Shown: positions 14,823-34,788 of the stretch, one piece after another
Layout of the letters: each line of letters starts with the position of its first letter
How positions within the stretch are numbered: position 1 is the first letter of the stretch
Source of the DNA: a virus
Taxonomy: Duplodnaviria > Caudoviricetes
Direction: 5' to 3' (one strand)
IMG/VR virus record: IMGVR_UViG_3300016722_000008
Location: 1-36,040 of that record
Length of the DNA: 36,040 bases
Made by a program: the position numbers and the translations under genes
The notes under the pieces: generated by a model
What the model was told of the DNA's origin: nothing
Database searches by the model: none
What the model saw: the letters and a program-made list of their open reading frames with translations, nothing else

Positions 14823-15403
14823 AAAAGAAATATCCTGTTTCCCTCCCTGTTCATTTTGCTGGCTTCCCACCGATGTTCAAGGTGACCTGCGGCGCGTCCA
14901 TTCCGTCTCCGTATAGCTATGGAAGCCGTGTCATACTGCATAGAACGCCATTATGTGGAATTGTTCAAGGAGGGTATGAAGAAGGAAAATCCCTTCCTGA
15001 TTTATCCATGATCTACAGCGACACCGGGCAGGATGGAAACTTTGACCTTAAACTCTCATTCTACGGATGGGGCACTTTTTACAAAGACAACGATGATGCG
15101 CCGTATTGTTCTCTTGAAATACGAAAAGGTATAAAAGTTGAAGCGCATGGTATTTCCAAAAAATTTGAGACACATGATATTTGGGAAACCCTTATCCCTG
15201 CCTCAACTGTTTTGACGGACAATCCCATTATAAAAAATATAGCGCTCCTCTATACAGAAAAATCATCAACGCCAGAACCAGCCGATGGATATGTCAGAGT
15301 CTTAAATAAATCAGACATATTTTCGCCATCTCTTTCTGGCGGCATCAGACTCAATGGGACGTTACAGCTCTCCGGCGAAGGTATTGTCTGGTTGAAGTCA
15401 TGA
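14819..15403 (+). CDS. Hypothetical protein (AT-rich tail module)
   Basis: 194-aa ORF with ATGA overlaps on both sides; no family recognised. Confidence 0.6.
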   Translation: MKKKYPVSLPVHFAGFPPMFKVTCGASIPSPYSYGSRVILHRTPLCGIVQGGYEEGKSLPDLSMIYSDTGQDGNFDLKLSFYGWGTFYKDNDDAPYCSLEIRKGIKVEAHGISKKFETHDIWETLIPASTVLTDNPIIKNIALLYTEKSSTPEPADGYVRVLNKSDIFSPSLSGGIRLNGTLQLSGEGIVWLKS

Positions 15404-16281
15404 GTGATCTTCTCATCTTTTACAACGAAAATGGGGAGATTACTTCTTCCGCAGCGGACCCTGCAACAAGACAGTTTTATGCTGATTACCTGCTTATTGA
15501 TAGGCCATTGGATGCTTTTGGCAGCCTGGAAGAAGTGGGGGGATGCGATTGGGATCCTGATGAATATGATTTTTTATTTTCGAACAAAAACACGCTTATT
15601 GGACTTTTTCGAGCTTGCGACATTCAAGCGCAGGAATCCCAACAGATAGCCACCTGGCAGGATAGCAGCGGATGCGGCAACGATATCGTTACCTTAACTG
15701 GAAATGTTGTATATTCAAATAATCTTGTAAAATTAACAACTGCAAAAGGAAATAGAGATATTACTTTTTCAAAAGATCCTGTGCAACCATTGAATAAAAA
15801 ATCAACGACATTTATTGAATTTGAGATAGACAAAATAGCATCAAACAAAGAAGTATTTCTCGTTGAAATACAAGCAGGATTTGTATGGATTGAATTTGAG
15901 TTTGGACATTCAAATGGTACTATAACTTTTTGTTTTAATGATATAGTAGATAACAATGGCTCAAATTATTATCCTGGTGATGTTCTAGATATAGACATAA
16001 CAAATAGCAGAATGTTTTTAACTGTTATTTGTAGTGAAGATAAAACAATATTTCGACTCAATCAGAATATTATAAAATCAATTGACATGCCACAGGTTGC
16101 ATGGAGCTGGCAGTCGGGCTTTTGGGTCTCTCCGACAATCGGGGGACGCATCTGGCACGAAGGAAAAGAATATGGAACGACGCTGAGCCTCGCGAATATT
16201 ATTTCTTTTTCGACAACGTTATCGGAAAGCGATTGCCTGAACATTGAATCTTTTCTCATGAAAAGATTTAGCAATGGCTAA
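15400..16281 (+). CDS. LamG/lectin-like putative receptor-binding protein
   Basis: IATWQDSSGCGND and C-terminal LSESDCLNIESFLMKRF match the ends of phage LamG-like domains; the central part is very AT-rich. Confidence 0.55.
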   Translation: MSDLLIFYNENGEITSSAADPATRQFYADYLLIDRPLDAFGSLEEVGGCDWDPDEYDFLFSNKNTLIGLFRACDIQAQESQQIATWQDSSGCGNDIVTLTGNVVYSNNLVKLTTAKGNRDITFSKDPVQPLNKKSTTFIEFEIDKIASNKEVFLVEIQAGFVWIEFEFGHSNGTITFCFNDIVDNNGSNYYPGDVLDIDITNSRMFLTVICSEDKTIFRLNQNIIKSIDMPQVAWSWQSGFWVSPTIGGRIWHEGKEYGTTLSLANIISFSTTLSESDCLNIESFLMKRFSNG

Positions 16282-17917
16282 CCTCCTTCAATATATACAG
16301 GCTCTTGAGCCTTATTCCGCTGACACGGTCGGAGACGGAACCGGAGTTCTGCCGCAGCCAACCGCTCAGGGGACAGGAACGTCTGGCGCGGTTGGCATTC
16401 CAGCTCTGCCCACGCTGCAGGGCGAGGGGAGCGCAAGCTGGCGGCCGTTTGGCCTCTGCATCCTTCCCTCTCTGCAAGGCACCGGAACGACGAACGGCTA
16501 CCACCCGGCCTGGGGAACGCTGCATCTCCCGGCCCCAACGCCAGAGGGGACAGCCCACACCCATATTGAATCAGTGGACTTCCTGCCGCTGCTTTTTTCC
16601 GAAAGCCACACCGGAGCCGCCGCAGAAGCAAGCCTTCCGTTACCTTCTCCCTACGCCTTGTCGGGGTATAACACACGAGGAAGCGGCCTCTGCGTCCTGC
16701 GCCTCCCCATTGTCTCCTCCTGGGCCTGCTCGCTTGAGAGCCCTCTCAATAACACGATTGCGGTCTCGCGGGTGGTTGCGCTTCTCAACCAGGGAAATGC
16801 CATCCTGAAAGCCCTCGCCGCGCAGCTTACCGAATACGATGCCGACAATGATGCAAAAGCAATTTCCGTCACCTACGCCGTTTCCCATCTCCTGACCTAT
16901 ACCAGCGACACGAGCGGCATCGGCGATAATTGGACCTGCGCCATCGCCACCTGGATGCGGGCCTTTGGCGACTGTGAAGATGGCGCGATTCTCATCCACG
17001 CCTTGCTCCTGGCCGCAGGCGTGCCGGCAGCCCGACTGCGTACGTGCTTTGGCACCGTTGGCGTGGATCGCACAGGGCATGCCTGGACGATCTACCAACG
17101 CGAAAGCGACTGTGAATGGATACCGCTGGAATGGACCGCCGGGCCGATTCCTTGGGACCGTACCGCCCAGGATATCAAGCGGATGCTCGATTTGACCGCC
17201 ACATACACGGGCGTCGAATATCTGCTGACAAGCTCCGACTTCTTTAAAATTGCAAGTCTTTCATATGCACGGTTGCTGATGGTCAACCATGCCCGGGCAT
17301 CGATTGCGGCATTGTTCCCCACAGCGTCCGGCAAGACGAATGTCTCGGCCTCGGCCTCCCTGCATGTCCTGTTGCCAACACTCACAGGCGCGGCCGGGGC
17401 CTGCGGCTCCATGTGTTCGCCGCTGCCACAGATCCTTGCCACAGGTTTGCAGGCCTCTGTGGGGTTCGGCGACTGCACGCTCTCCCATCCTGAAATTTCA
17501 GGATGCCCTGGCGCACAGGGTGTCTGCTCCATGGGCATGGATGTCTTGGGCTGCGGCGGCATTTCAGGCCGCTGTGCTGTGGCCGTTCCGTTCCCTCTGG
17601 CTGTCGCAACGGGAGGGCAGGCCTCGTCGGGACGTGGTGCGTGCACGATAGCCTTCGACGGCGCGGGACGCATGCTGGCCGGCCTGACCGGAGAGGGGGA
17701 TTGCGCCATGCCGCTGCCGCTTTTGCGGGGCACGGACCTCGCGTCCCTCGTCGGGCGCGGCAATTCCCGCATCCCATTGCCGACGGTGGCCGGGCAGGGC
17801 GGAGCGCTTTCTGACGGCAGGGGCCATTGCCGCATCCCCAGGCTGCGAGTGCGGGGCGCAGCCCATACCACGTCAACACCACACATCTGGGAGTTTGTTC
17901 CCGAGAGGTTGTCATGA
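16274..17917 (+). CDS. Tail/fibre protein with Gly-rich repeats and an inserted transglutaminase-like cysteine-peptidase domain
   Basis: LPxxxGxG-type repeats flank a central domain with GDCEDGAIL, GHAW and WIPLE (Cys-His-acid triad). Confidence 0.7.
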   Translation: MANLLQYIQALEPYSADTVGDGTGVLPQPTAQGTGTSGAVGIPALPTLQGEGSASWRPFGLCILPSLQGTGTTNGYHPAWGTLHLPAPTPEGTAHTHIESVDFLPLLFSESHTGAAAEASLPLPSPYALSGYNTRGSGLCVLRLPIVSSWACSLESPLNNTIAVSRVVALLNQGNAILKALAAQLTEYDADNDAKAISVTYAVSHLLTYTSDTSGIGDNWTCAIATWMRAFGDCEDGAILIHALLLAAGVPAARLRTCFGTVGVDRTGHAWTIYQRESDCEWIPLEWTAGPIPWDRTAQDIKRMLDLTATYTGVEYLLTSSDFFKIASLSYARLLMVNHARASIAALFPTASGKTNVSASASLHVLLPTLTGAAGACGSMCSPLPQILATGLQASVGFGDCTLSHPEISGCPGAQGVCSMGMDVLGCGGISGRCAVAVPFPLAVATGGQASSGRGACTIAFDGAGRMLAGLTGEGDCAMPLPLLRGTDLASLVGRGNSRIPLPTVAGQGGALSDGRGHCRIPRLRVRGAAHTTSTPHIWEFVPERLS

Positions 17918-20284: not shown

Positions 20285-21628
20285 ATGGATAACTTTCTTT
20301 CACGGTATCCCCTTATTCGGGAAATGGACGCAGAAAGTGACCCGGATACACGGATAAATATCCGGGAACGTCGGCGGTTGGACACCGAGGCGACAACCGG
20401 ACAGTTGGCGGCCAAGCCGGCACAGTATCTTTCGCTGGACGAGCGGGCCGCGTTGGACCGGCAACGTGTCGCGGCGGAGGCCGAGCGGGCGGCCCGGGAG
20501 AGAATGAGAACCGAAGAGCTGACCCGGGCCGCGAGTACGGCGGCCAGCCGGGCCAATCCCTACGGATCCTGGCGGGAGTCGGCGGATAAGCTGGATGCAA
20601 CCGCCAACAATTGGAATCAGGACACCACCACCCGGGCGGCGGCCCTGGAGGCCAGAAATAATCTCTATTTCAACAGCGGTTCCAACGACGCCATGGCCCG
20701 GCGCATCGACCAGGCCAATGACCCGGCGTCACGCTTTGCGGCCGCAGACGCGGCACAACGCAAGGAATGGGCCGATACCATCCTTGCCGCAGATAAGGAT
20801 GGTCTGGTCCCCGGGGTCGAAAAGGCGGCGGCGGCGATCCGACAACAACGCGTCGATGCCGCCCGGCAGGGGTTGGGACTTCCTTCTGAAGCAGCGAATG
20901 ACATGGCCGCCTCGCACCACGTTGAAACCAGACCACGGTCGAACGAAGTGGCGGAATTTTTTGTTCCGCCCCGAGCGGGAAATACTCCAACTCCCGGTCA
21001 GTCCTCAGGCGTTCCCCCGAGCGCCGGACAACCCGGACAGTCGGGGAACTGGAGACCATCCACGGAATCCGGGCAGCCTGTCGGCGTTTCCTCTCCATCG
21101 GCTGCGGCGGGCGATGACCTGGGGCTTCTGCGCTGGTCGGCGGCCCAAAACAAAACCCCGATGGACAAGGTCAACAATTATCTCGTGAACACGGCAGGCA
21201 CGGCCATGGGCTCCGCCTGGAACTCCGCCAAAACCGCCGCCGGGGCTGTGGGCGATTTTATAAAGCCTGACGTTGACGCGGCCCGGGCCGGTGTCGATTG
21301 GGCCGTCAATCGACCGCAGACGCCGGCCGCACCCGAAACGGAAGCCGTCGCGAATGCCCTCGGAGAGGGGTGGCGCACCGCGATGGATGCAGGACAACTG
21401 GTCGGCGTCATCCCGGCAGTCGGTGGCCCCCGGAGCAAACTGGGACAGGCTGTCGCGCAAAAAGTTGGCCAAATGACCCGTCCCGTCGTCGATGTGGCTT
21501 CGCAAATCGGACGCAACGCCAGCCGGGCGTTCCAGGGGCTGCCCACATACGTGGAAGAAGAGGGCGGATCGGGGACGGACTGGCGGGGTGACGATCAGGC
21601 CAAACGTCGGGAGATGGGGGCGTACTGA
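20285..21628 (+). CDS. Putative internal virion/ejection protein
   Basis: 447 aa, Ala/Gln/Arg-rich helical and disordered; TGATG-coupled to the giant gene. Confidence 0.6.
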   Translation: MDNFLSRYPLIREMDAESDPDTRINIRERRRLDTEATTGQLAAKPAQYLSLDERAALDRQRVAAEAERAARERMRTEELTRAASTAASRANPYGSWRESADKLDATANNWNQDTTTRAAALEARNNLYFNSGSNDAMARRIDQANDPASRFAAADAAQRKEWADTILAADKDGLVPGVEKAAAAIRQQRVDAARQGLGLPSEAANDMAASHHVETRPRSNEVAEFFVPPRAGNTPTPGQSSGVPPSAGQPGQSGNWRPSTESGQPVGVSSPSAAAGDDLGLLRWSAAQNKTPMDKVNNYLVNTAGTAMGSAWNSAKTAAGAVGDFIKPDVDAARAGVDWAVNRPQTPAAPETEAVANALGEGWRTAMDAGQLVGVIPAVGGPRSKLGQAVAQKVGQMTRPVVDVASQIGRNASRAFQGLPTYVEEEGGSGTDWRGDDQAKRREMGAY

Positions 21629-24600
21629 TGCCGATTGATCTTGCGAACTATCGGGACGAACACCGGGACAACTACGGCGATGCCAGCCTGGACGACGTCG
21701 CACAGGATCTGTACGTCCGATCCGGTTCGGCCGCCGCCGGCACGCGGTTCGAGGACTTCGCCAATGCCCACGGCCTGGGCAGCCAGCTCGGCCAGACAAA
21801 GCAGGAGGGCGGGCAGCCTGTCGCACCCCAACCCCAGGCAGGCGATGCGTCCTGGCTGGGGCGACGCTGGAACGATGCCAAGGTCGCCGGCAAGGTTATT
21901 GGCCAGGGGTTGTATTCAGCCGCTGCCGACGTACTGCCCAAAACCGTTGCCGAAGTCTGGCGCGGCGGAGACGTGCCTCTGCACGCCGAAGAAACGGCAG
22001 CCGGTCAGGAAATCGCCGCCCAGCAAAAAGACCTGGAACGATGGAATCTGCCTCCGGAAGAGGCCAACCGGGATTTGTTTGGCCTGGTCAAAGCCAAGGA
22101 TGTGCAGGAAGGCTTGCAAAACCTTGGATATAGCGCCGGTTCCATGGTTGCCGGCATGGGGGCCGGGGCGGCGGCCGGATCCGTAGTCCCTGGCGCGGGC
22201 ACCCTGGCCGGAGCTGTTGGCGGAGCGCTCGGAGCCGGATTGGCTGGCGGCGCGGTCGGCTACCGGGCCACCAAGGATCAATTCATTGAAAGCATGCGGC
22301 AAAAGCTGCTGCAAGCGAACCCCAACCTTTCCGAAGAAAAATGGAACGAGACAAAGGCCGCCCTCGATAAGGACGCCTCATTGTACGCCATGTGGGAGGC
22401 TATTCCCGAGGCCGTCGGGGATGCACTGACCATGGGCATTCTCAAAACACCGGCGGGCAATCTGATCAAGTCGGTGCCGTTTATAAAAAATGGCATTACC
22501 CGGACGTTGGCCAAGGCCGGGGTGAAGGCCGGGCTGGATATCCCCGTGGAATTGGGAACAGAGGCCTGGACCCAACATGAACAGGGAGCCCTGGAAGCCC
22601 AACACGGATTGCGGGATCAAGCCCCGACATGGCGGGAAGCCTTTGACGAGGTCGCCCCGCAAACCACGGTCATGTCCCTGGCCACGATGGGGCTGGGGGG
22701 TGCGGCCGAACATTTTTCCCCCCATACCCGGGCCATCCGGCGTGACACGCGCACAATCAGCGAAGGCGTGCAGGCCGGGGCGCATCGCGATCTGTCCGAC
22801 GAGGATTTACAGCAGGTCTATACTGCGGCCGATGCCCTGTTCCGGGAAAACCCCGGCATCCCAACCCGGGATGCCTTGTTGGAATTGAATGCCGAGCAGC
22901 TTCGCCGACAGAATGCGGCACGTGGTTTTCCGCTCAATGCATTTCTGGCCGACGAGAACCAGCCGGGCGAGGCTGTTGAAACACCACCCCCTGCGCCCCA
23001 GGAGCCCGTGGCTACGACAGCCGAAACACTTCAGGGGCAAGGGATAACAACTGAAACGGAGGCCGTGCCCGGTCCGGACCGGGCGGCCGAACTGGCGGGG
23101 TTGTCCAAGAACAAACTCAATGCATTGGCCATGAATCTGGGCATTGAGAAGCCGGGACGCATCAAGCGGGATGCTCTGGTGGCGTCCGTGCTTGAGGCCG
23201 AGGAAGCGGCCCGAAAGTGGAATGAGCCGGACAACGTGGAAGCCCGTTACCGCGAAACCCATGCCGCCCCGTTCCCGGGACGGTTGGACGATTTTCTGTT
23301 CCAGGTCGCGCCGGTCGCCCCGGAAGTCGTAGCGCCTGGAGCATCCCAGGAAGCGCCGCCTGCCGCCGCGCCCACGGGCCGGCGGGCGCATAGTCGCAAT
23401 CTGACGCAGCCCGTGGCCACGGAAGCGGCCACCGAAGCCCTGGCGTCGGCCACGGGTGAAGTTCCGCTGGTGGAAGCCGGCGCTGAACCGGCCGTGTCCG
23501 AGGCGCAGGCCCCTTCCCCTGTCCCCCCATCCCGGCCGGCCCTGGTGGAGCAGACGCCGGAAGGCGCGTTGCCGACAGGCGAGGTGCCGTTGGTGGAGGC
23601 GGGGAGGGAGGCCGAAGTTCTCAACGAACAGCCGGCAAACGTCCCCAAAACCGAGGCGACTGTAAACGAAGCGGGCAATTCGCTCAACGAAACGCCACCA
23701 ACGGCGCAGCCGACCGAAGATCCGGCCGCCAAATCCAGGCGCGGGTTGAATGATCTGGCTGCGTCCCTTGGTGTGAAGCGGCCCGGAGCCATTCGGCGCG
23801 AGGACCTGGTGGGCCGCATCGAGCAGGCCCGGCAGGAGGAGACGGCCCAGGGGCAACCGGAAGCCTCGATAGGACAGACGCCGGCAACGGCAGGGCCGCA
23901 GACGAAACAGGCGCGGCCGTGGCTGCGGGAGACCGGCGAAAAAGCCACTGTGGGGGCGCTGCTGCGCGCTGATGACCACATGGTGGCGCGCAAGCCCGTT
24001 GAAGGCCGGGTGGTCCATTTCGAGATCCCGGGGCTTGAGGACATCGGTTTCGTGGCCCACCCCGACCTCAACGGCGGCAAGGGCTGGACGGTCACGGAAA
24101 CACAGTCCGGAACCACCGCCGTGACCGGAGCTGCGTCCGAGCAAGAGGCGCTTAAGGCCGTCCATGACCGGCTGGCCGGCTTTGACGCCGAGCGATTTCG
24201 CGTCAACCGGGAGGACCTGGTGTCCCGGTTCGGGAGTGCTGTGCAGACGACGCCGGCGCAGTCGGTCGCCAAACCGCAGGAGCAGCCGACGCAGGCTGTG
24301 CCGGAAAAGTCTCCAGCCGGCCAGGAAGGTCCTCGCTACGCCATGTCACTCCGGGAGACGACGCACGCCAAGAAGGGGCATCCGCTCTATGTCGTGACCC
24401 TGGATGAACACACGTCACGAGAGGACTATGAAAAGCTCAAGTATGAATTTAACAAACTCGGAGGGTATTGGTCGCGCTACAAAGGCAGGGGGGCGATACC
24501 GGGCGTCCAGTTCGAGGACAGGGCCAAGGCCGAGGCGTTTGTGGAGCGGTTCGGCAAAAAGCCGGCAGCTCCGGAGACGGCCACGGAACAGGTTCCCGCG

Positions 24601-27600
24601 CCGGTCAAGGAGGCCCGGCCGTCTTCACCGCAACCGGAACAGGCCACGGACAAGCCTCTTGGTGTCAACAATCAGGGCAACCAGGTCTTCGAAGACGAAC
24701 GCGGCAATCGTTTTGTGCGCGAAGGGAACGTCCGCATCGAGGCCCCGGTTTCGGTCCGACCGACCCGGGCCGGCGTGGTGGCCGAGGCGCATGGAGCGGA
24801 GCAGCTTCACCGGGACGGACACCGGGAATTTTTGACCAAGGACGAGTTGGCGAGGTTTGAGAAACCGGAAGCCTCGACACCGGCTGGCGAAGACATTATT
24901 TTCGACAAGGAAGACCAAGGAGCGCGCGATGCAGGAAGTGCACACCCTGACCGATCCCGACCGGATGTGGGACTGGAAGGCCCATCTGACCTGGCTCCTG
25001 GAGAACAAGCCCCAGGAGACCTGGGCAACGTTCCAGGCGAATCCGGACGAACTGAAGGAAGCCATCGACCGGAAGACACTGCAGTCCGCCAACGTCCAGT
25101 TCGGCCTCAAAGCCCGGAATCTCCCGGAGGACGCGATTCAGGAGGCGATGCTGGCGGTGGTCGCTCCGTCGGACGGCCCGGCCCTGAACGCGGAGAATCC
25201 GCCCGAGCCGCTGCCCCCGCAAAAGGAACACCGGATATGGGCGTGGTGGGAGGACCTGCCGCCCCGAAAGATCACGGTTCTTCCGGACGGGACCTATCGC
25301 GAGACCATAACCACCGCATAGCCCCCGACGACGTGCTGGTGCCCGGCGGCAACGCCACCCGGGCCAAGGCCAATCTCGCCGCTGTCCGGCTTCTCAAGGA
25401 GCTGGAGGCGCAAAACCGTCTCCCCACGCCCCAGGAACGCAAGGTTCTGGCCCAATTCTCGGGCTGGGGCTCCCTGGCCGAAGAGGTCTTCAAGGCCGAT
25501 TTCGAGAATCTCGCCAACCAGTATGGAGGCGAGGATCTGCCATATCACGCCCGCCTGCGCAATGAGGCGATCCTGGACAAGTACGCTGCCTGGAAGCGCA
25601 GGTACGGCGAACTCCATCCCAACATCGGCGGTCTCTTCTCCAAGGAAGAGTGGGACGCGGCCAAGCGGTCGACGTTAAACGCCCACTACACCGACCGGGA
25701 TGTGATCACGGCCATGTGGGACATGGTCCAGCATATGGGCTTTACCGGCGGCCAAGTGGTGGAGCCGGCCGCCGGCATCGGCCATTTCTTTGGCCTCATG
25801 CCCGAAAACCTGGCCGTCGCCTCCCACCTCAAGGGCGTGGAGCTGGATTCCGTCACCGGCCGGATGCTTGAAAAGCTCTATCCCGCCGCCGACATCCAGG
25901 TCACCGGATTCCAGGATGCCAAGCGCATGGGGAACAACACAGCCGATCTGGTCATCTCCAACGTTCCCTTCGGCGACTTCCCGGTCTACGACAAGGCCCA
26001 CAAGGACTATTCCGGCTGGAGCATCCACAACTACTTCCTGGCCAGGGCCCTGGACGTGGTGCGGCCCGGCGGCCTGGTCGCGGCCATCACCTCGCACTAC
26101 ACCATGGACACGACCCGGTGGGGCAGGGTCCGCGAGTACCTGGCCGGCAAGGCGGACCTGGTGGGCGCGATCCGCTTGCCCGGCACGGCCTTTGCCAAGA
26201 ACGCCGGCACCGACGTCACAACCGACATCCTGATCCTGCGCAAAAAGGACGGCCGGCCCTTTGAAGGCCAGCCCTGGCGGCAGGTGGAAAAGGTGGAGAC
26301 GCCCGAGGGACAGGCCGGGGTCAACGAATACTTCGTGGCCCATCCGGAAATGGTGCTCGGCAGGCATTCCCTGACCGGTTCCATGCACGGTGGCCTCGAA
26401 TACACGGTGCTGCCGGACAAGGCCCAGCCCCTTATCAAGCAGGTGCGGGAGGCCGTGGCACAGCTGCCCGTGGACATCATGGGCGAAGGGGCGGCCACCC
26501 AGCCGAAGCCGCTGCCCCAGGCCCTTGGCGAACGGGCCGACGCAGACATGCGGGAAGGGACCCTTGTCGTCCGGGACGGCAAGGTCTTTGCCGTGGAGGA
26601 CGGTCGGCTCTCCCGGCCGGAATGGCAGGACGGAAAGCTGGCCGAGTCCCGAACGGCCATCGCCCGCCAGTATGTCGGCGTCAAGACGGCCGCCCAGGAC
26701 TTGGTCCGGGCTATGCTGTCCGAAGAGGCGACCGATGCGGACATTGCCGCGAAACAGAACGAGCTTGGCCGGTTGTACGATGCCTTTGTCAAGAAGCACG
26801 GGCCGTTCCTCGACAACCGCAAGCTGACCTTTCTTCGCGATGACGTCGAATATCCCAACGTCCTGGCCCTGGAAAAGAAGGAAGAGCAAGTTGTCAGTGG
26901 TGACAAAAATGTGGTCGTCACCAAGGCCGACATCTTTACCAAGCGGACCATCCGGCCTTTTGCCGAGCCCAGGACGGCCGCCTCGGCCGAGGATGCCGTC
27001 AAGATAAGCCTGCTCTACCGGGGCAATGTGGACGCCGCCAAAATCGGCGAGCTGCTCGGCCTGCCGGAGGCCGAAGCCAGACGCCAGCTCCTGGAGACCG
27101 GGGCGGCTTATGAAAACCCGGAGACGGGGTTGCTCGAAACGCCGCAGGAATATCTGTCCGGCAACGTGCGCCAAAAGCTCCAGGTCGCCAGGGACAGCGC
27201 GGAAAGCAATCCGGACTACAAACGCAACCTGGATGCCCTGGAGGCGGTGCAGCCGCCCAAAAAGCCCGTCAGCCGCATCGACGCCCGCCTGGGCGCAACC
27301 TGGATTCCCGACAGCGTGGTGTCCGCCTTCATGGAGCGCATGGGCGTCCGTTGGGGCAAGGCGGTCCAGACGCGCACCCGGGCCGGCGAGGACGGCCTTT
27401 CCTCCTGGGACGTCAAGGGGTCCCTGACCCAGGAGGCCCAAAACCGCTGGACCGTGGGCGACACAAACCTCCTCGACATCCTTAAGGATTCGCTGAACCT
27501 CAAGCTGTCCAAGGCCTACAAGTACCTGCCGGACGGCAAGGGCGGCCGCGACCGCGTGGTGGACCAGGAAGGGACGCTGCTCGTTCAGGAAAAGCAGAAG

Positions 27601-30600
27601 GCCCTGCAGGAGGAGTTTCTCAAATTCGCCCGCGAGACGCCCAAGGTCGCCACGGAGTTGGAAAACCTCTACGACGAGCGGTTCGGCGGGCAGATCCCCC
27701 GCGAGTACAACATCCCGGACGTGGCCCATTATCCGGGCGCGGTCGAGACCATCACCCTGCGCGACCATCAGAAACGCGGGGTCTCGCGCGGGCTCCAGGA
27801 GAACACACTCTTCGCCCACGGCGTCGGGGCCGGCAAAACCTATCTGGTCACGACCCTGGCCATGGAGGCCCGCCGGCTCGGCACGGCCAAAAAGCCCATG
27901 ATCGTGGTCCAGGGCGCGACCCTGGAGCAGTTCGCCGGGGCCTTCAAACGGCTCTATCCGGCCGCCAACGTGCTGGCCCCCAACGCCGATGACCGGACCC
28001 GGGCCAACCGGCAGCGGCTCCTGTCCCAGATCGCCACGGGCGATTGGGACGCCGTGATTGTACCGCATTCGTTTTTCAACGGCCTGGCCATTTCCCCGGA
28101 GCGGGAAACGGCGTTTATCGAAGAGGACCTGGACGCCCTGCGGGCGGATCTGCGCGAAGCCCAGGCCGACAAGAGCCAGGATCGGGGCAGGAAGCCGCCA
28201 CGGGTCAAGCAGATCGAAAAGATGATGCTCAAGCGCGAGGCGCGACTCAAGGCCCTGCTCGACGCCCGCAAGGATGAGAACGTCTTTTTCGAGGACACGG
28301 GCGTGGACATGCTGGTGGTGGATGAGGCCCACGCCTACAAGCGCGGCGATTTCGTCACCAAGATGGACAACGTGAAGGGCCTGGACCGGGATTCCTCCCA
28401 GCGGTCCATGCAGCTCTTGCTCAAGTCCCGGTACATTGCCGAGAAGACCGGGGGCAAAAACGTCCACCTGGCCACCGGAACGCCGGTTTCCAACACCCTG
28501 GCCGAGCTGTGGACCGCTCTGCGCTACATCCGTCCGGACCTTCTGGAGCGGTTCAACGTCACACAGTTCGATGACTTCGCCTCGACCTTTTGCGCCACCA
28601 AGACCGACATCGAGGAGACGGCCACGGGCGACTACAAGCCCGTGACCCGGTTCAACCGCTACCAGAACCTGGGCGAACTCATCTCCATGTGGAAGGCCGG
28701 CGCGGACATCGTGCTGGCCGAAGACCTGGACTACATCAAGGATATTCCGAAGCTCAAAGGCGGCCGGCCCCAGGAAGTGTCCCTGGAGCGCAACCCGGAA
28801 CTGACCGGCTACATCCAGCACCTCAAGCAGTGGCGGATGGAGTGGGAACACCTGACCGGCAAGGAGAAGCGGGAGCAGTCCCATGTTCCGCTTCTCATCT
28901 ACAATCTGGCCCAAAAGGCCGCCCTGGACATGCGGCTGGTCAATCCGGAACTGGAGGAGGCCCCGGGCGGCAAGCTCGATGCGGCGGCCGGGGAGATCTT
29001 CAAGCGGTATCAGGCCCACCAGGACACCCGGGCGGCCCAGGCGGTTTTCAGCGATATCTACCAGTCGTCGGACAAGTCCTTCAATATCTGGAAGGACCTC
29101 AAGGGCAAGCTCGTGGCCAAGGGCATCCCGGCCAAAGAAATCGCCATCATCTACGACTACAACGAGAAGGCCCGGGAAAAGCTCTTTGAAGCGGTCAATG
29201 CCGGCGATGTCCGGGTGGTGATGGGGTCCACGGAAAAGCTCGGCGTGGGCGTCAACATCCAGGAGCGTCTGGTCGCCCTGCACCATTTGGCACCGCCGGT
29301 CAGGCCTATGGATTGGGAACAGCGAAACGGCCGCATCCGTCGCCAGGGCAACAGGTTCGACGAGGTGGAGGTCCTGGCCTACGGCGTGAAAAACACGCTC
29401 GACTCGGTCAGTTTCAATATTCTCCAGAACAAGCAGAAGTTCATCAACCAGCTCCTTCGCGGCGAGATCGACGGCGACGTGATGGAGAACCCCTTTGACG
29501 ACGTCCAGCTCTCCTTCGAGGATATGATGGCGGCCTTTTCCGGCAACCCGCTGGCCATGGAGCGGGTGAAGCTGGAGGGCCAGGTGCGGGACCTGGGCCG
29601 GCTGCGCCAGGCCTTCCAGGACGAAAAGGCCGGCCGCATCCGTCAGCTCGACCTTTTGCGCGGGAGCCGGATACCGGACATCGAAAAGAGCCTGGCCACA
29701 GCCGAAAAGGACGTGGATCGGCTGCGGGGTTCCTTCCCGGACCTCAAGGCGGAAACCTTTACGCTCAAGGACGGCACGTTCGAGAAGAAGGATTTCACCA
29801 GGAAGCTGACGGATTGGTACGACGGGATCAAGACCCGCCTGGAAAAGGAGACGGTGGGCAAGACCGTGGCCCACTACGAAGGGGTGCGCAGCGGCGGCAA
29901 ATTCGGCGGCGCGGTCACCTTCGAGACCGGCGGCCATGAGGTCAAAATCAAGGTTCGTCCCGTACCGGCCAGCCTGGTCGGTGCGGACTCCAACCGGGGG
30001 GATGGCCTGGCCAAGGTCACCGAGGCCACCCTGACCGGTTCCTTCACCGTCACGGCCCAAAACGGGGGAACCCTTTTCGAGCGCAATTTCGGCGCGCCCT
30101 CCGGATTTGTCCGCGCCTTCAACAACGGCCTCGAGGAGCTTTCCCGGGAGCCCGAGCGCATCAAGGGGCAGCTCGACCGGGCTCGGGAGTCGGCCGCGTC
30201 CCTGGAACGGCTCGTGGAGGAGAAGTTTTCCCGGGAAGAGGAATACAAGCAGGCGTCCGCCCGGTTGCGGGAAGTCGAGGAGGAACTGAAAAAGGCCAAG
30301 AACGAGGATCTGGCCGCAGCGGCTCAGGAAGCGGAGGGTGCCCAAGAAGAAGCCAGTGGCCCGGCGGCCCGCTTGGCCCGGGCCGAAGCCCGCACCGCCG
30401 ATATTTCCCCCGTGGCCCGGGCCGTGGCCGAGACGTTGCGCCAGGGCCTGACGCAGGTACCGGCCCTGCGCGGCATCGTGGACATCTACCAGAGCGAGGC
30501 CGATCTGCCGGCGGATCTGCGGCGCGAGATCAAGGAGGCGGGCGTATCGGGCAAATTCTACGGGGCCTATGACCCCGAAACCAAGCGCATTGTGCTCGTG

Positions 30601-33600
30601 GCCGGGAACATTCCCACGGAAAAGGCCGGGCAGACGGCGTTCGTCCAGGCGTTGTTGCGTCACGAGGGCCGGCACGGCGGCCTGGACCTGATTCTGGGCG
30701 GCCGGGAGGCACGTCAGGAGGCCATGCTGCAAGCCGCGCGCATCATGCCCAAGGAGGTTTCCCGCTGGCTGGAGAGAAACGGCCTTGATTCCACCCGCGC
30801 CACCCGCGCCGAAGCGGCCGAGGAACTCCTGGTTTCCTGGGCCCAAAACGGCACCATGCATCGCGCCCTCGACCGCCTGCTGACCAGGATCGCACAGTGG
30901 GCCCGCACCATCTTCCCGAATATCAAACTGACCAAGGCCGAGCTGCGGCAACTGCTTGCCCAGGCTGACAACTTTGTGGACGGCAAGGGCCTCGATTTCG
31001 TGGCTCCACTCGGCCAGTCGCTAACCGCCGCGCCGACTTTCGCGCGTGCTGCAACGCCCAACTTCGCACAACAGGTGGATGCTTATCTCGCCGGCCGGTT
31101 GCGGCCCCATGAAAGATTGGACCTTGGGGGGACGCCACCTGTGATCGGTCTTCTCGGCGGCCATGACCTGTCGTTGGAAATGACCCAGGCGAAAGCGAAC
31201 AAAATTCTCCGAGAGGAGGGGCAGGGAGGAAAACACGGGGTTCCAGCCGAGACACTCAAACAGCTTCCTCAGGCGTTGGAGCGTCCCGTGGTGGTGCTTC
31301 AGTCCGCGACCTGGGCCGATAGCCTGGTGGTGGTGACGGAACTCCCTCACCAGGGATCCTTCCTGGTGGCGGCCGTTCATCTCAACGTTCAGCAGGGGCG
31401 CGCGGAAATCAACGAAGTGGCCAGTGTGTATGCGAGGGGAACACAACCGTATTGGGTCGCCCAACAGATTCGTAACGGAAAGTTGCTGTACCGGGACAAA
31501 ACAAAAATCCCCGGTTGGCAGAGATCTTTCGGGCTGCAATTGCCCACAGAGATACCAACCGGGAACAGGAAGAAAATATTCACTGAGGTCGATCTCGTCA
31601 AGTACAAACAGGGGCTGCCGCCGAAGGGTGCTGGGCCTCGCTTCGCCCGGGCCGGCCAACTGACCGGCGTGCCGGAGGAACCGGAAAAGTTCACCCATTG
31701 GTTTAAAGACGCCACAACCGCCCATGTGCGTTCCATCCTGCCGGCCGTCCATGATTCGCTCAAAGAAACCGCCGTATTGGGCAAGATCCTGCGGTCGCCG
31801 GAATACTGGCAGCACCCAGTCCTTAAGCGCCTTTACGAGACCTTCCGTGACCGCACGGACCACGCCCACGAGATCCTGCACAAGGCCCTTGATGCCGGCG
31901 ACGGTTCGGGCCGCACGATCCTGGACGAGGCCAAGGCCATCCTCAAGAACCCGAAGCAGCGCGAGATACTTTCAGAAGGCGTGGACTACGCCGACGTCAA
32001 CGAGATTCAGCCCGAGGCCATGGAAACCTGGTTTGCCGACCACGGCGCGACCGAGGCCACCATCAATCTCTGGCGGACCATGCGGGAGCGGTATGACATG
32101 CTCCTGGACCAACGCCTGGAATCGTACCGCCGGCTCATGGACAAGGCGCGGGACACCTACGGGGCCAAGATCATCCGCCGTCTGGTCGACGCCGGCATCC
32201 CGTCCGCAGAGGCCAGGACCTTCGACGCGACCGAGTATCAGGCGGACAAGACCCTGTCCGAGGAGCTGGCGCCCTACGCTTCGGAAGTGGCCGACGTTGT
32301 TTTCAAAGCCCGCAAGGACGGCCTGACCATCAAGGACCAGCTCACGGACGTGCGGCTGGTCGGCGAGGACGGGGCGTCCTTTTCGCTCAAGGAAATGATC
32401 GAACGCATGGGCCAGATGCGCGGCTTCTACGCCCCACGCTTGCGCGAGACCGGCGACTATGTGGTGCGCGGCGAGCGCACCGGAACGGATGGAAAAATCG
32501 AGCGGTTCCGGGCGCACAAGGAATGGCGGGCCGGGGCGGAAAAGCTGCGGGCGAAGATGGCCCGGGCTGGTTGGGACATGGAGCCCGTCAGCAAAATCCC
32601 GAAACTGCCGGAGGCCACCCAAGGGCTTATCAAAGCGCTGGAACTGGCCAAGACGGTTGAATCCGCCGTCAACCATGTCGGCGAGGACGTGGACGCCGGG
32701 CTTGTCGAAGAACTGTTGGAGACCCTGGCCGATGAAGTCAAATCGCGTGGTTTTCGATCGCAATCCATCCGGCGCACAGGGCGTCATGGCGAGGTGGTTC
32801 AGGGTTATTTCAAGGACGCGATGGAACGGTTCACGCGCTATGCTGGTTCAACCGCCTACGGGCTGGCCAAGATGGACGCGGCCGGCAAGGCGGCCCGGGC
32901 GCTCTTCGGCAGTGCGGACATGCCGGGGATCGACATCAAAAAGGAGCGCGACGTTTATCGGCTGGCCGTGGACTATCTGGCTGAAAACCTGCGTAACGCC
33001 GAAGCCGGGGACCGGGTTTTCAGCCTGGCCAAGTCCGTCGCCTCGCTCAAATATCTGGGCCTGAATCCGCGTTCGGCCCTGGTCAACCTGTCCTCAATGG
33101 CCACCAGCGTACCGGCGGCGCTTCATGCCTACGCCCTGGAAGGGAAGGGGGGCTGGGCCCGGGTCGGCCGCACCATAGCCCGGTCCATGGGTGACTACCT
33201 GGGGGTGATGACGGGGAAATGGGGCCGGTTCACCCCGGAGGAAAAAGCGTTTCTGACCGCTATCCGTAAAGAATCCCTGGACGATCCGCAGTTCGCCCGC
33301 GAGGCGTTGTCCACGTACCGCGACACGGCCGGGAAAAGCTGGTCCTGGCTCATGGGCAAATCGCTGGCCCTGTTCGGCGCGACAGAACAGCTTAACCGGG
33401 GGGCGACGCTCCTGGCCGCTTATCGTCTGGCCCGGTGGGCCGGAGCCGATCATGAGGCCGCCATGGCCCGGGCCAGGGAGACGTCCGACCGGGCCCATGG
33501 CGTGTATGATCGTTCCACCCAGCCGGTCTGGACCTGGGGCACGAGCGCCGGGGCGCGGCTGGGCCAGTCCTGGTACGTCTACAAAAAGTACGGCCACAAC

Positions 33601-34788
33601 TATCTGCAATTGATCCATGCGCTTTTCCAGAAAAAGGATTGGCAGGCGGCCACGTTCGCTCTGACCGCGCCTGTCCTTCTGGGTGGTCTGGGAAGCCAGG
33701 TGCTGACCTCCATCGTCAAGGGACTGTTCGCGGCGGGCGGATCGGACGAAGACCCCGAGAAATGGGTCTATGACACCATCCGGCACAACTGCGGCAACGG
33801 GGCCGAAGATCTGGCCAGATTCGGGTTACTCGGCATGTTCACAGGCACGGACATGTCTGGCTCCATCGGCACCATGATCGACATGCCCGACACCTGGTCG
33901 GATATCCTGGGACCCATGGGCGGCATGGCCAGGGATATCCTGCAGGGCATCGGCTTTCTTGCCGGCGGCCAGCCCGGCCGGGCTTCGGAAAAGCTGCTGC
34001 CGGCCGGCGTCTCGAAAGTCGTTCAGGCGTTGCGCGAGTCCGATCAGGGCGTTTCCACCTCCAAAAACTATCCGGTCATCGGGGAGGATGGAAAGCCACT
34101 CATGCCGACGGCCGGGGAATCAACGGCCAAGGCGCTTGGCTTCCGGCCGCTTCGCGAAGCCAAAGCCCGGAATAAGACCAGCGAGGCCATTGAGGAAGAA
34201 AGACGCTATGCCGAAAAGCGCGACCGGATTTACGCCCGTTTCCGGGCATTCGCTCTGGCCGGCGGCAGGGACGAGGCCGAACGACAGGCCCTTGTCGCGG
34301 CCATGGCCGCCTACAATCAGAGCGTGGCGGCCGCCGGATTGACCGGCCGCGTTTCGCCCATCACCCGGAAAAGCCTTTTGCGCCAGACCGAACGGGTGGC
34401 CAGTCCGACCAAACGCGAGCAGGCGCGTGTTGACGGCGGTCGGCAACGCCCGATCGAGCCCGTGACAGACGCGGACGTGGAAGACCTCTCCCACCCGTTT
34501 TACGCGGTACGCCGGGCATATGCCCAGGCCAAGGCCCGCTATGACGCCCTGCGTGAAAAAGGGGACCACGAAGGGGCCATGCAGGTGCGGACCGAAACAA
34601 AGCTGCCGCGCCTGCGCATGCTGGTCGGCCGGGTGCAGGCCGTCCGCGAAGCCATGACAACAATACGCAGCTCACGATTGTCCGAGGACGCCAAAGCCCG
34701 CCGGCTGGCCATGCTCCGCGACCGTGAGCGCCGGGAGATGGATCGGGCGGCGCGCACGGCGGGAATACAAACCGCCATTGGAGAATAG
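21628..34788 (+). CDS. Giant polyvalent virion protein: DarB-like N6-adenine MTase + SF2/SNF2 helicase, zincin motif, MuF-C/PBECR-like domain, PLxRFG-like C-terminal region
   Basis: Gly-rich hydrophobic N-terminal segment; EPAAGIG (25762) and NVPF (25960); Walker A AHGVGAGKT (27814), DEAH (28321), ATGTP and QRNGRIRRQGN (29320); HEGRH (30661) with downstream EE; LGGTP...KH...QLP...SVY.R...GLQLP (~31060-31610); GFYAPRLRETGDY (32422). Confidence 0.9.
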   Translation: MPIDLANYRDEHRDNYGDASLDDVAQDLYVRSGSAAAGTRFEDFANAHGLGSQLGQTKQEGGQPVAPQPQAGDASWLGRRWNDAKVAGKVIGQGLYSAAADVLPKTVAEVWRGGDVPLHAEETAAGQEIAAQQKDLERWNLPPEEANRDLFGLVKAKDVQEGLQNLGYSAGSMVAGMGAGAAAGSVVPGAGTLAGAVGGALGAGLAGGAVGYRATKDQFIESMRQKLLQANPNLSEEKWNETKAALDKDASLYAMWEAIPEAVGDALTMGILKTPAGNLIKSVPFIKNGITRTLAKAGVKAGLDIPVELGTEAWTQHEQGALEAQHGLRDQAPTWREAFDEVAPQTTVMSLATMGLGGAAEHFSPHTRAIRRDTRTISEGVQAGAHRDLSDEDLQQVYTAADALFRENPGIPTRDALLELNAEQLRRQNAARGFPLNAFLADENQPGEAVETPPPAPQEPVATTAETLQGQGITTETEAVPGPDRAAELAGLSKNKLNALAMNLGIEKPGRIKRDALVASVLEAEEAARKWNEPDNVEARYRETHAAPFPGRLDDFLFQVAPVAPEVVAPGASQEAPPAAAPTGRRAHSRNLTQPVATEAATEALASATGEVPLVEAGAEPAVSEAQAPSPVPPSRPALVEQTPEGALPTGEVPLVEAGREAEVLNEQPANVPKTEATVNEAGNSLNETPPTAQPTEDPAAKSRRGLNDLAASLGVKRPGAIRREDLVGRIEQARQEETAQGQPEASIGQTPATAGPQTKQARPWLRETGEKATVGALLRADDHMVARKPVEGRVVHFEIPGLEDIGFVAHPDLNGGKGWTVTETQSGTTAVTGAASEQEALKAVHDRLAGFDAERFRVNREDLVSRFGSAVQTTPAQSVAKPQEQPTQAVPEKSPAGQEGPRYAMSLRETTHAKKGHPLYVVTLDEHTSREDYEKLKYEFNKLGGYWSRYKGRGAIPGVQFEDRAKAEAFVERFGKKPAAPETATEQVPAPVKEARPSSPQPEQATDKPLGVNNQGNQVFEDERGNRFVREGNVRIEAPVSVRPTRAGVVAEAHGAEQLHRDGHREFLTKDELARFEKPEASTPAGEDIIFDKEDQGARDAGSAHPDRSRPDVGLEGPSDLAPGEQAPGDLGNVPGESGRTEGSHRPEDTAVRQRPVRPQSPESPGGRDSGGDAGGGRSVGRPGPERGESARAAAPAKGTPDMGVVGGPAAPKDHGSSGRDLSRDHNHRIAPDDVLVPGGNATRAKANLAAVRLLKELEAQNRLPTPQERKVLAQFSGWGSLAEEVFKADFENLANQYGGEDLPYHARLRNEAILDKYAAWKRRYGELHPNIGGLFSKEEWDAAKRSTLNAHYTDRDVITAMWDMVQHMGFTGGQVVEPAAGIGHFFGLMPENLAVASHLKGVELDSVTGRMLEKLYPAADIQVTGFQDAKRMGNNTADLVISNVPFGDFPVYDKAHKDYSGWSIHNYFLARALDVVRPGGLVAAITSHYTMDTTRWGRVREYLAGKADLVGAIRLPGTAFAKNAGTDVTTDILILRKKDGRPFEGQPWRQVEKVETPEGQAGVNEYFVAHPEMVLGRHSLTGSMHGGLEYTVLPDKAQPLIKQVREAVAQLPVDIMGEGAATQPKPLPQALGERADADMREGTLVVRDGKVFAVEDGRLSRPEWQDGKLAESRTAIARQYVGVKTAAQDLVRAMLSEEATDADIAAKQNELGRLYDAFVKKHGPFLDNRKLTFLRDDVEYPNVLALEKKEEQVVSGDKNVVVTKADIFTKRTIRPFAEPRTAASAEDAVKISLLYRGNVDAAKIGELLGLPEAEARRQLLETGAAYENPETGLLETPQEYLSGNVRQKLQVARDSAESNPDYKRNLDALEAVQPPKKPVSRIDARLGATWIPDSVVSAFMERMGVRWGKAVQTRTRAGEDGLSSWDVKGSLTQEAQNRWTVGDTNLLDILKDSLNLKLSKAYKYLPDGKGGRDRVVDQEGTLLVQEKQKALQEEFLKFARETPKVATELENLYDERFGGQIPREYNIPDVAHYPGAVETITLRDHQKRGVSRGLQENTLFAHGVGAGKTYLVTTLAMEARRLGTAKKPMIVVQGATLEQFAGAFKRLYPAANVLAPNADDRTRANRQRLLSQIATGDWDAVIVPHSFFNGLAISPERETAFIEEDLDALRADLREAQADKSQDRGRKPPRVKQIEKMMLKREARLKALLDARKDENVFFEDTGVDMLVVDEAHAYKRGDFVTKMDNVKGLDRDSSQRSMQLLLKSRYIAEKTGGKNVHLATGTPVSNTLAELWTALRYIRPDLLERFNVTQFDDFASTFCATKTDIEETATGDYKPVTRFNRYQNLGELISMWKAGADIVLAEDLDYIKDIPKLKGGRPQEVSLERNPELTGYIQHLKQWRMEWEHLTGKEKREQSHVPLLIYNLAQKAALDMRLVNPELEEAPGGKLDAAAGEIFKRYQAHQDTRAAQAVFSDIYQSSDKSFNIWKDLKGKLVAKGIPAKEIAIIYDYNEKAREKLFEAVNAGDVRVVMGSTEKLGVGVNIQERLVALHHLAPPVRPMDWEQRNGRIRRQGNRFDEVEVLAYGVKNTLDSVSFNILQNKQKFINQLLRGEIDGDVMENPFDDVQLSFEDMMAAFSGNPLAMERVKLEGQVRDLGRLRQAFQDEKAGRIRQLDLLRGSRIPDIEKSLATAEKDVDRLRGSFPDLKAETFTLKDGTFEKKDFTRKLTDWYDGIKTRLEKETVGKTVAHYEGVRSGGKFGGAVTFETGGHEVKIKVRPVPASLVGADSNRGDGLAKVTEATLTGSFTVTAQNGGTLFERNFGAPSGFVRAFNNGLEELSREPERIKGQLDRARESAASLERLVEEKFSREEEYKQASARLREVEEELKKAKNEDLAAAAQEAEGAQEEASGPAARLARAEARTADISPVARAVAETLRQGLTQVPALRGIVDIYQSEADLPADLRREIKEAGVSGKFYGAYDPETKRIVLVAGNIPTEKAGQTAFVQALLRHEGRHGGLDLILGGREARQEAMLQAARIMPKEVSRWLERNGLDSTRATRAEAAEELLVSWAQNGTMHRALDRLLTRIAQWARTIFPNIKLTKAELRQLLAQADNFVDGKGLDFVAPLGQSLTAAPTFARAATPNFAQQVDAYLAGRLRPHERLDLGGTPPVIGLLGGHDLSLEMTQAKANKILREEGQGGKHGVPAETLKQLPQALERPVVVLQSATWADSLVVVTELPHQGSFLVAAVHLNVQQGRAEINEVASVYARGTQPYWVAQQIRNGKLLYRDKTKIPGWQRSFGLQLPTEIPTGNRKKIFTEVDLVKYKQGLPPKGAGPRFARAGQLTGVPEEPEKFTHWFKDATTAHVRSILPAVHDSLKETAVLGKILRSPEYWQHPVLKRLYETFRDRTDHAHEILHKALDAGDGSGRTILDEAKAILKNPKQREILSEGVDYADVNEIQPEAMETWFADHGATEATINLWRTMRERYDMLLDQRLESYRRLMDKARDTYGAKIIRRLVDAGIPSAEARTFDATEYQADKTLSEELAPYASEVADVVFKARKDGLTIKDQLTDVRLVGEDGASFSLKEMIERMGQMRGFYAPRLRETGDYVVRGERTGTDGKIERFRAHKEWRAGAEKLRAKMARAGWDMEPVSKIPKLPEATQGLIKALELAKTVESAVNHVGEDVDAGLVEELLETLADEVKSRGFRSQSIRRTGRHGEVVQGYFKDAMERFTRYAGSTAYGLAKMDAAGKAARALFGSADMPGIDIKKERDVYRLAVDYLAENLRNAEAGDRVFSLAKSVASLKYLGLNPRSALVNLSSMATSVPAALHAYALEGKGGWARVGRTIARSMGDYLGVMTGKWGRFTPEEKAFLTAIRKESLDDPQFAREALSTYRDTAGKSWSWLMGKSLALFGATEQLNRGATLLAAYRLARWAGADHEAAMARARETSDRAHGVYDRSTQPVWTWGTSAGARLGQSWYVYKKYGHNYLQLIHALFQKKDWQAATFALTAPVLLGGLGSQVLTSIVKGLFAAGGSDEDPEKWVYDTIRHNCGNGAEDLARFGLLGMFTGTDMSGSIGTMIDMPDTWSDILGPMGGMARDILQGIGFLAGGQPGRASEKLLPAGVSKVVQALRESDQGVSTSKNYPVIGEDGKPLMPTAGESTAKALGFRPLREAKARNKTSEAIEEERRYAEKRDRIYARFRAFALAGGRDEAERQALVAAMAAYNQSVAAAGLTGRVSPITRKSLLRQTERVASPTKREQARVDGGRQRPIEPVTDADVEDLSHPFYAVRRAYAQAKARYDALREKGDHEGAMQVRTETKLPRLRMLVGRVQAVREAMTTIRSSRLSEDAKARRLAMLRDRERREMDRAARTAGIQTAIGE
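24874..24902 (+). promoter_or_regulatory. Internal sigma70-like promoter for the nested gene
   Basis: TCGACA (24874-24879), 17 bp, TATTTT (24897-24902); SD AAGGAG at 24917-24922 and ATG at 24929 follow. Confidence 0.65.
24929..25321 (+). CDS. Overprinted (+1 frame) 130-aa gene inside the giant gene; weakly DUF1896/TnpV-like helical protein
   Basis: Own promoter and SD; G/C-ending codons in this frame while the host frame is low-complexity G/R/P/S with A/T-ending codons; globular Trp-rich sequence; stops at the start of the MTase domain. Confidence 0.75.
   Translation: MQEVHTLTDPDRMWDWKAHLTWLLENKPQETWATFQANPDELKEAIDRKTLQSANVQFGLKARNLPEDAIQEAMLAVVAPSDGPALNAENPPEPLPPQKEHRIWAWWEDLPPRKITVLPDGTYRETITTA
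31498..31566 (-). ncRNA. Putative ~69-nt structured antisense RNA embedded in the MuF-C/PBECR-like coding region
   Basis: Predicted GUUCCCGGUUGGUAUCUCUGUGGGCAAUUGCAGCCCGAAAGAUCUCUGCCAACCGGGGAUUUUUGUUUU: 14-bp closing stem with G-U pairs that form only on this strand, apical GGGC/GCCC stem with 7-nt loop, terminal U-tract, and a promoter directly upstream. Confidence 0.65.
31573..31601 (-). promoter_or_regulatory. Antisense sigma70-like promoter
   Basis: Minus strand TTGACG (31601-31596), 17 bp, TATTTT (31578-31573); predicted +1 near G at 31566. Confidence 0.7.

Follow-up and report, generated by a model that had tools for sequence, protein, structure and literature searches.

The locus described here raises the question of whether an open reading frame of 130 codons, lying entirely inside the gene for a giant virion protein, is a gene in its own right and, if so, what its product does. 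The window (the whole stretch of DNA analysed, 36,040 bases) is a virus contig carrying a phage structural block, which encodes a terminase, a portal or head-tail adaptor, the major head protein, head closure and virion proteins upstream of the giant gene. A Pfam search of the giant protein gives Rho_N-like repeats, an N6-methylase match (residues 1353–1541), SNF2/ResIII matches and MuF_C, the N6-methylase and ResIII scores being below their Pfam cut-offs. An LPD36-like GXG[GAS] region, an N6-methylase motif and an SF2 helicase are thus present in a single chain (as GWGS, NVPF and SNF2/ResIII). According to the main text of PMC5512222, this is the methylase-helicase dyad of polyvalent proteins, with P1 DarB as archetype, and as the third most prevalent domain it ranks among the commonest cargo that polyvalent proteins of phages and conjugative elements carry. 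Coordinates are collected in the table.

Features of the nested gene and the giant gene in the window
Feature	Position	Strand	Remark
DarB-like polyvalent protein gene	21628..34788	+	4,386 aa, within phage virion module
Sigma-70-like site TCGACA-17-TATTTT, candidate internal promoter	24874..24902	+	-10 ends 26 nt before ATG
Shine-Dalgarno-like AAGGAG	24917..24922	+	6 nt before ATG
Giant-frame residues 1101–1231, low-complexity G/R/P/S linker	24928..25320	+	same bases as nested gene
Nested 130-aa gene, +1 frame to giant	24929..25321	+	ATG 24929, TAG ends 25321
LPD36-like region, GWGS motif, opens enzyme module	25321..25683	+	label follows the PMC5512222 description, not a profile
N6-adenine methyltransferase domain, NVPF motif	25684..26250	+	
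SF2/SNF2-type helicase region	27751..29547	+	approximate bounds
MuF_C domain of giant	31219..31509	+	Pfam E 4e-22

Several other features of the window may be recorded. Two Rho_N-like repeats are located in the amino-terminal region of the giant, at 23089–23202 and about 23740–23850. In the virion block, a 547-aa open reading frame (16274–17917) contains a transglutaminase-like core (E 4e-5, above the cut-off). The stretch 14001–16000 has a low GC content (0.39–0.44 versus about 0.62) and is possibly an acquired module; the open reading frames 14819–15403 and 15400–16281 in this stretch have no Pfam or PHROGs match. A 1,758-aa antisense open reading frame (25675–30951, minus strand) opposite the enzyme module is read as a shadow of GC-rich coding.

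A sequence-only reading of this DNA had described the promoter-like hexamers, the AAGGAG, the ATG and the 130-aa frame as a hidden gene, and all of these are located where it placed them. The G/C-ending codons that it noticed are reflected in a GC3 of 0.83 for the small frame over 24929–25321, versus 0.44 for the giant frame. The degraded giant frame that it described is likewise present, being 54% G/R/P/S across the nested gene and devoid of I, F, W and Y. When codon usage is scored with the remainder of the gene as training set, a non-giant frame is preferred at the nested gene and nowhere else in the 13 kb. The encoded protein is helical and acidic (net charge -8, pI 4.8), and is likely translated from a ribosome-binding site of its own. 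The length of the frame is unremarkable, as nine of the ten longest stop-free +1 stretches are others, of 135–222 codons; codon signal, conservation and fold, not length, are the grounds on which it is judged real. The stop, said to coincide with the start of the methyltransferase domain, does meet the start of the LPD36-like region, but the Pfam N6-methylase match (from residue 1353) begins around 120 residues further on.

In all three related viral contigs both frames are open, so that the stops in close homologues that would have spoken against the gene are absent, and the small proteins are 79–91% identical. Start and ribosome-binding site are retained in all three: AAGGAG is kept in L001 and L003, and L002 has AAAGGA before a shifted ATG. 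Pairwise comparison of four close sequences gives a dN/dS of 0.26 for the small frame and 1.70 for the giant frame (0.18–0.41 and 1.3–2.4, respectively, over the six comparisons). The values above 1 are the expected reflection of synonymous changes in the small frame, not a sign of positive selection. The inner frame, contained whole within another open frame on the same strand, is therefore the one under purifying selection, in agreement with the earlier proposal that the giant is read through a constrained small gene. One sequencing-run contig spans the stretch without any difference and may be the source of the same DNA. In a representative library, 53 relatives of the nested protein were found at E 0.001 or better, mostly of 105–140 aa.

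The layout recurs well beyond these relatives. Using the first 300 residues of the enzyme module (the methyltransferase) as anchor, 122 loci were assembled: the window, all 26 viral loci, 80 retained from 150 genome loci (mostly Acidobacteriota and Verrucomicrobiota), eight cultured phages picked from 120 matching records, P1, and six plasmids picked from 2,049. A nested +1 frame with an ATG start and at least 80 codons, within 1 kb upstream and inside the enzyme open frame, is present in 97 of the 122 and a +2 frame by the same measure in none, which answers the suggestion that other DarB-like methyltransferase domains be searched for such frames. Two of the 97 (L049 and L050) were dropped because their +1 frames are not coding-like, and a profile search added 13 loci (11 in +1, two in frame 0), bringing the count to 108 of 122; clustering at 90% identity leaves a partner in 82 of 95 clusters, and clustering at 70% in 32 of 41. 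With the small protein and the local codon use taken as fixed, the giant frame would be open by chance with a median probability of 0.03 per locus (0.13 in the window), a figure derived from loci selected as open; its unbiased counterpart is a three-frame profile search of the 122 loci, which gives matches in +1 at 89 and in frame 0 at two. Coding-like +1 frames occur in none of 431 downstream control windows, a control that is partly circular since these windows belong to the training set of the codon model. An untrained upstream control was added for this reason and contains two in 77 windows, one of them the TnpV-like nested frame of L090, 3.5 kb upstream (E 0.002).

All eight cultured phages carry the nested gene (DC1, PBC5, VvAW1, PEp14, LASTA, 8P, Atu_ph08 and Gerry) and none of their records lists it separately, a blind spot of standard annotation that had been foreseen. 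In plasmid record L043 the nested gene is annotated as hypothetical and the enzyme gene as starting after it. Unlisted nested +1 genes are located in AT-rich SNF2/methylase genes of the Campylobacter pTet plasmid (L041:3513–3989, where the chance of an open frame is about 1e-13) and of a Listeria innocua plasmid (L040:3489–3833). In phage PBC5 (AF448724, L031:2100–2461) a one-base gap relative to Atu_ph08, possibly a sequencing error, lies just before the nested start; with this gap the annotated orf33 reads on into the nested frame, leaving the giant in two pieces.

At 11 of the 122 loci the enzyme is found without a detected nearby partner (P1, three plasmids, L029, L051, L052, L054, L059, L084 and L123), so the partner is not strictly required; the genomes of L123, L059 and L051, which are incomplete, were searched whole and contain no detected homologue. 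No association is seen between presence of the nested gene and the type of methylase motif (NVPF, NPPF or NIPF). The nested position varies, being about 550 nt upstream in two phages and 400–900 residues upstream in Lachnospiraceae. The nested proteins, 82% of 95 with a pI below 6, form one cluster of 68, one of seven that includes the window's, a third of 11 and several singletons; the third resembles the window's family weakly (44%), and not all are demonstrated to belong to a single family. A tblastn search of phage records with an Acidobacteria nested protein gave no match, nor did a single-protein scan of genome contigs.

The nested protein of the window has no match in Pfam or PHROGs, including TnpV (PF14198) and DUF1896 (PF08989), the two families that the sequence-only reading pointed to. 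It does not reach the PF14198 cut-off of 27 bits, and five of 56 family members match that profile, with a best E of 0.019. In profile-profile comparison the window's family (A2) matches a second nested family (A4) at 95% (E 3e-8), and the probabilities against TnpV are 42% for A2, 62% for A4 and 92% for a broad alignment (A5), the last match covering the two amino-terminal helices (E 6e-7). Reversed controls stay below 1%. Kinship of the nested family with TnpV/DUF1896, remote and beneath the Pfam cut-offs, is probable. PDB entry 2apl (PG0816) we take to be a member of the DUF1896 family PF08989.

An AlphaFold model calculated on the alignment of relatives (pLDDT 93.8, pTM 0.86) has four main helices, with one more helix and a hairpin at the terminus. 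Foldseek searches of the PDB and BFVD with this model gave no match at E 0.001 or better, the ESM Atlas no usable match, and a PDB sequence search with the window's family nothing beyond designed helical repeats and weak matches. Single genomes searched with PF14198 and PF08989 gave no match, which does not demonstrate absence. Codon bias, selection, the recurring layout and the confident fold together bear out the hidden gene, and the nested frame is almost certainly a real, translated one.

Free-standing homologues are located beside the same enzyme gene. When 201 Bacteroidota genomes were searched, DUF1896 was free-standing directly upstream of it in all four genomes with a match. In two Anaerolinea loci (L049:8370–8810 and L050:10190–10630, E 1e-19) a free homologue of the nested family lies directly downstream. 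Among the 30 best loci from 101 genomes of Lachnospiraceae, six have canonical TnpV nested in +1 within a methylase-helicase gene; in the remaining 24 it is not nested, and no enzyme match is seen in their roughly 3-kb loci. The adjacency of TnpV and DUF1896 to methyltransferase-helicase genes in mobile elements, which the sequence-only reading had mentioned, is thus borne out. Free homologues flanking the same enzyme gene, together with the constraint on the small frame, make it likely that the small gene is the older of the two and the giant's linker the overprint. The sequence-only reading had called the small gene overprinted, a term that likely fits the linker instead.

The enzyme frame of short chromosomal members extends only 120–200 codons upstream, and a methionine, basic residues and the sequence QL[SDTNAG][LF]F, presumably a sliding-clamp-binding motif, are located just ahead of or at the nested start. 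Within the 260 residues that precede the enzyme, the motif occurs in 66 of 84 non-phage loci and three of 38 phage loci, with no match in 178,565 downstream control residues. It is absent from the window's phage, where the upstream part is a 1,100-aa region. Such a motif ahead of the linker would explain why the enzyme frame is translated through the small gene. In loci L053–L125 (for example L058, L076 and L104) the chromosomal DarB-like genes open, upstream of the methylase, with methionine, basic residues, a QL[SD]LF-type motif and then a disordered linker; L065 and L117 are among the loci that repeat the motif. In L059, L084 and L123 motif and linker are present with no nested gene detected, which looks like loss of the nested gene with the enzyme frame kept.

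A promoter of its own, also claimed for the gene, is better seen across relatives than in the window. Promoter-like sites number three in 15 kb of the window versus 1.9 ± 1.1 in shuffles, which is within chance; in close relatives the last base of the site differs in two and the site is absent in the third, and the relative L002/L006 has no strong promoter-like site. Once near-copies are removed, nine of 28 phage loci have a similarly scoring site 12–46 nt before the ATG versus 1.0 expected from shuffles, the other 19 having no strong site; the same criterion gives 13 in 840 upstream windows, and in non-phage loci eight of 59 have a site versus 1.75 expected. Transcription from an internal promoter is likely on the strength of this enrichment. 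The Shine-Dalgarno contrast of 47% versus 1.7% is inflated, as the starts were chosen by best match. A 1,083-nt metatranscriptome contig from a relative at roughly 91% takes in the nested gene from its start plus a further 380 nt; it is not proof of transcription, since such contigs show neither strand, start nor level. Contig cover in RNA run X15 amounts to 24927–26249 of 20 kb, the run having been chosen via this stretch and consisting of contigs only, whose gaps are uninformative.

The arrangement may have arisen from an ancestral cassette in which the small gene and the enzyme gene stood side by side, as DUF1896 does in Bacteroidota. An upstream part, namely a short peptide with the clamp-like motif in chromosomal mobile elements and the 1,100-aa virion region in the window's phage, would have become fused to the enzyme through translation of the small gene's -1 frame, with a flexible linker as the result. 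Nesting would tie the partner to the enzyme, and an internal promoter would allow partner synthesis while the late genes are off. The small acidic protein would then bind the methylase-helicase module of the giant and keep it inactive in the resident, phage-carrying cell. That the nested protein acts on the enzyme is reasonably probable. That it is an inhibitor rather than a loader is a tentative preference, for which the separate promoter signal and the 24 TnpV loci that are not nested and without enzyme match are the grounds. A loader would not be expected on an element by itself; passages of PMC9815147 describe mobilisable elements of S. suis that insert in snf2 genes of ICEs and carry tnpV, and passages of PMC7168690 also describe insertion in snf2. 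A complex prediction with the alignments of nested residues 3–116 and giant residues 1232–2045 (helicase half excluded) scored 0.00, which is evidence neither way. A bolder and quite unlikely extension is that TnpV, DUF1896 and the nested phage genes form one inhibitor superfamily for the DarB-like methylase-helicases brought into new cells by phages and conjugative elements. Made by the resident element from within the enzyme gene itself, the inhibitor would disarm the anti-restriction enzyme of incoming relatives, and mobilisable elements would use free tnpV copies to manipulate helper elements.

The small protein might instead be a chaperone or loader for folding of the giant, its packing into the head (or passage through a conjugation channel) and its delivery, as Ulx for P1 DarB. 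Nested proteins that are small, acidic and tied to the enzyme gene would suit such a role, as would P1 itself, which has ulx and no nested gene, and Ulx is listed in passages of PMC9024508 as helping DarB localisation. This reading is nevertheless rather unlikely: there is no similarity to Ulx, a late transcript would suffice and make a separate promoter unneeded, and the free tnpV genes without enzyme would be left unexplained. Somewhat doubtful too is a real small protein with another target (element excision or regulation, or a host defence protein), its linkage to the enzyme reflecting shared timing and its nesting a frozen fusion accident. The partner stays beside the enzyme gene in three layouts (nested, upstream and downstream), which argues against this, as does the modelled helical bundle, which differs from the fold that we take Xis to have. 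In its favour, the free-standing TnpV loci would also fit a role that has nothing to do with the enzyme, and some loci keep the enzyme with no detected partner; furthermore, TnpV was postulated to act in excision from its likeness to lambda Xis (passages of PMC3158075), and AcrIIA9 homologues are surrounded by DUF1896 and ArdA (passages of PMC6739104).

The remaining readings concern the frame itself. The +1 frame could feed a fusion, by frameshift or restart into the enzyme, or the internal promoter could serve a short enzyme isoform. In many loci the +1 stop does border the enzyme module, and L063 and L067 carry the homologue in the enzyme's own frame, some 350 nt ahead of the methylase match. 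A frame shift separates these two from their close kin, however, and may reflect an assembly error. The bases 25300–25340 contain neither a slippery run nor a ribosome-binding site, and elsewhere the stop is 50–600 nt or more from the module, so that we regard a fusion or isoform as very improbable. An artefact, either a chance frame in GC-rich DNA or paired assembly frameshifts, is scarcely credible. Frames of at least 80 codons in +1 are indeed common, occurring in 113 of the 431 control windows downstream and 27 of the 77 upstream, but the open frames of relatives, the fixed +1 phase and the dN/dS values refute this explanation, a protein family with a confident fold speaks against it, and independent contigs keep both frames.

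A conserved partner inside the gene would offer a direct handle on control of the DarB-like enzyme, and TnpV and DUF1896, two families of unknown function, gain a common candidate role. Deletions in such giant genes may remove two proteins, and virion proteomics against annotated genes cannot detect the small one. The giant's linker would be a new protein segment born by reading through an older gene, in one phase in phages, plasmids and chromosomal elements. The partner gene is real and widespread but apparently unpublished: full-text literature searches, which covered main texts and few subscription papers, did not find it, nor did term look-ups in PMC5512222, PMC9144972, PMC11437467 and PMC8788219. 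The main text of PMC5512222 does not contain TnpV, DUF1896 or the overlap by term look-up, and its domain files could bear on the matter.

When known systems are compared, the giant resembles P1 DarB and other polyvalent methylase-helicase proteins, as described in the main text of PMC5512222, in its LPD36-like region, N6-methylase, SNF2-type helicase, MuF_C and virion gene block; darB differs in that no more than 89 codons precede the match, and it lacks a nested gene. P1 Ulx (background in passages of PMC9024508 and PMC11437467) is similarly a small protein encoded beside the DarB gene and tied to DarB handling, but ulx is downstream of darB and does not overlap it, and homology to Ulx and Lxc was rejected by sequence comparison. 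TnpV of Tn4451-type mobilisable transposons gives a profile match with the broad alignment over the two amino-terminal helices and can itself be nested in +1 in methylase-helicase genes, and the nested +1 gene of the Listeria innocua plasmid passes the TnpV cut-off with 27.7 bits; the window's protein differs by its extra carboxy-terminal helix and hairpin, and its gene by sitting in a phage virion gene. DUF1896 is alike in being encoded just before the methylase-helicase module. Rz1 embedded in Rz (passages of PMC9144972) is, like the nested gene, a whole gene within another on the same strand in a different frame. In contrast to Rz, the containing gene here encodes an enzyme-bearing virion protein of 4,386 aa, the shared bases specify a disordered linker of that protein, and the arrangement occurs across phages, plasmids and chromosomal elements from several phyla.
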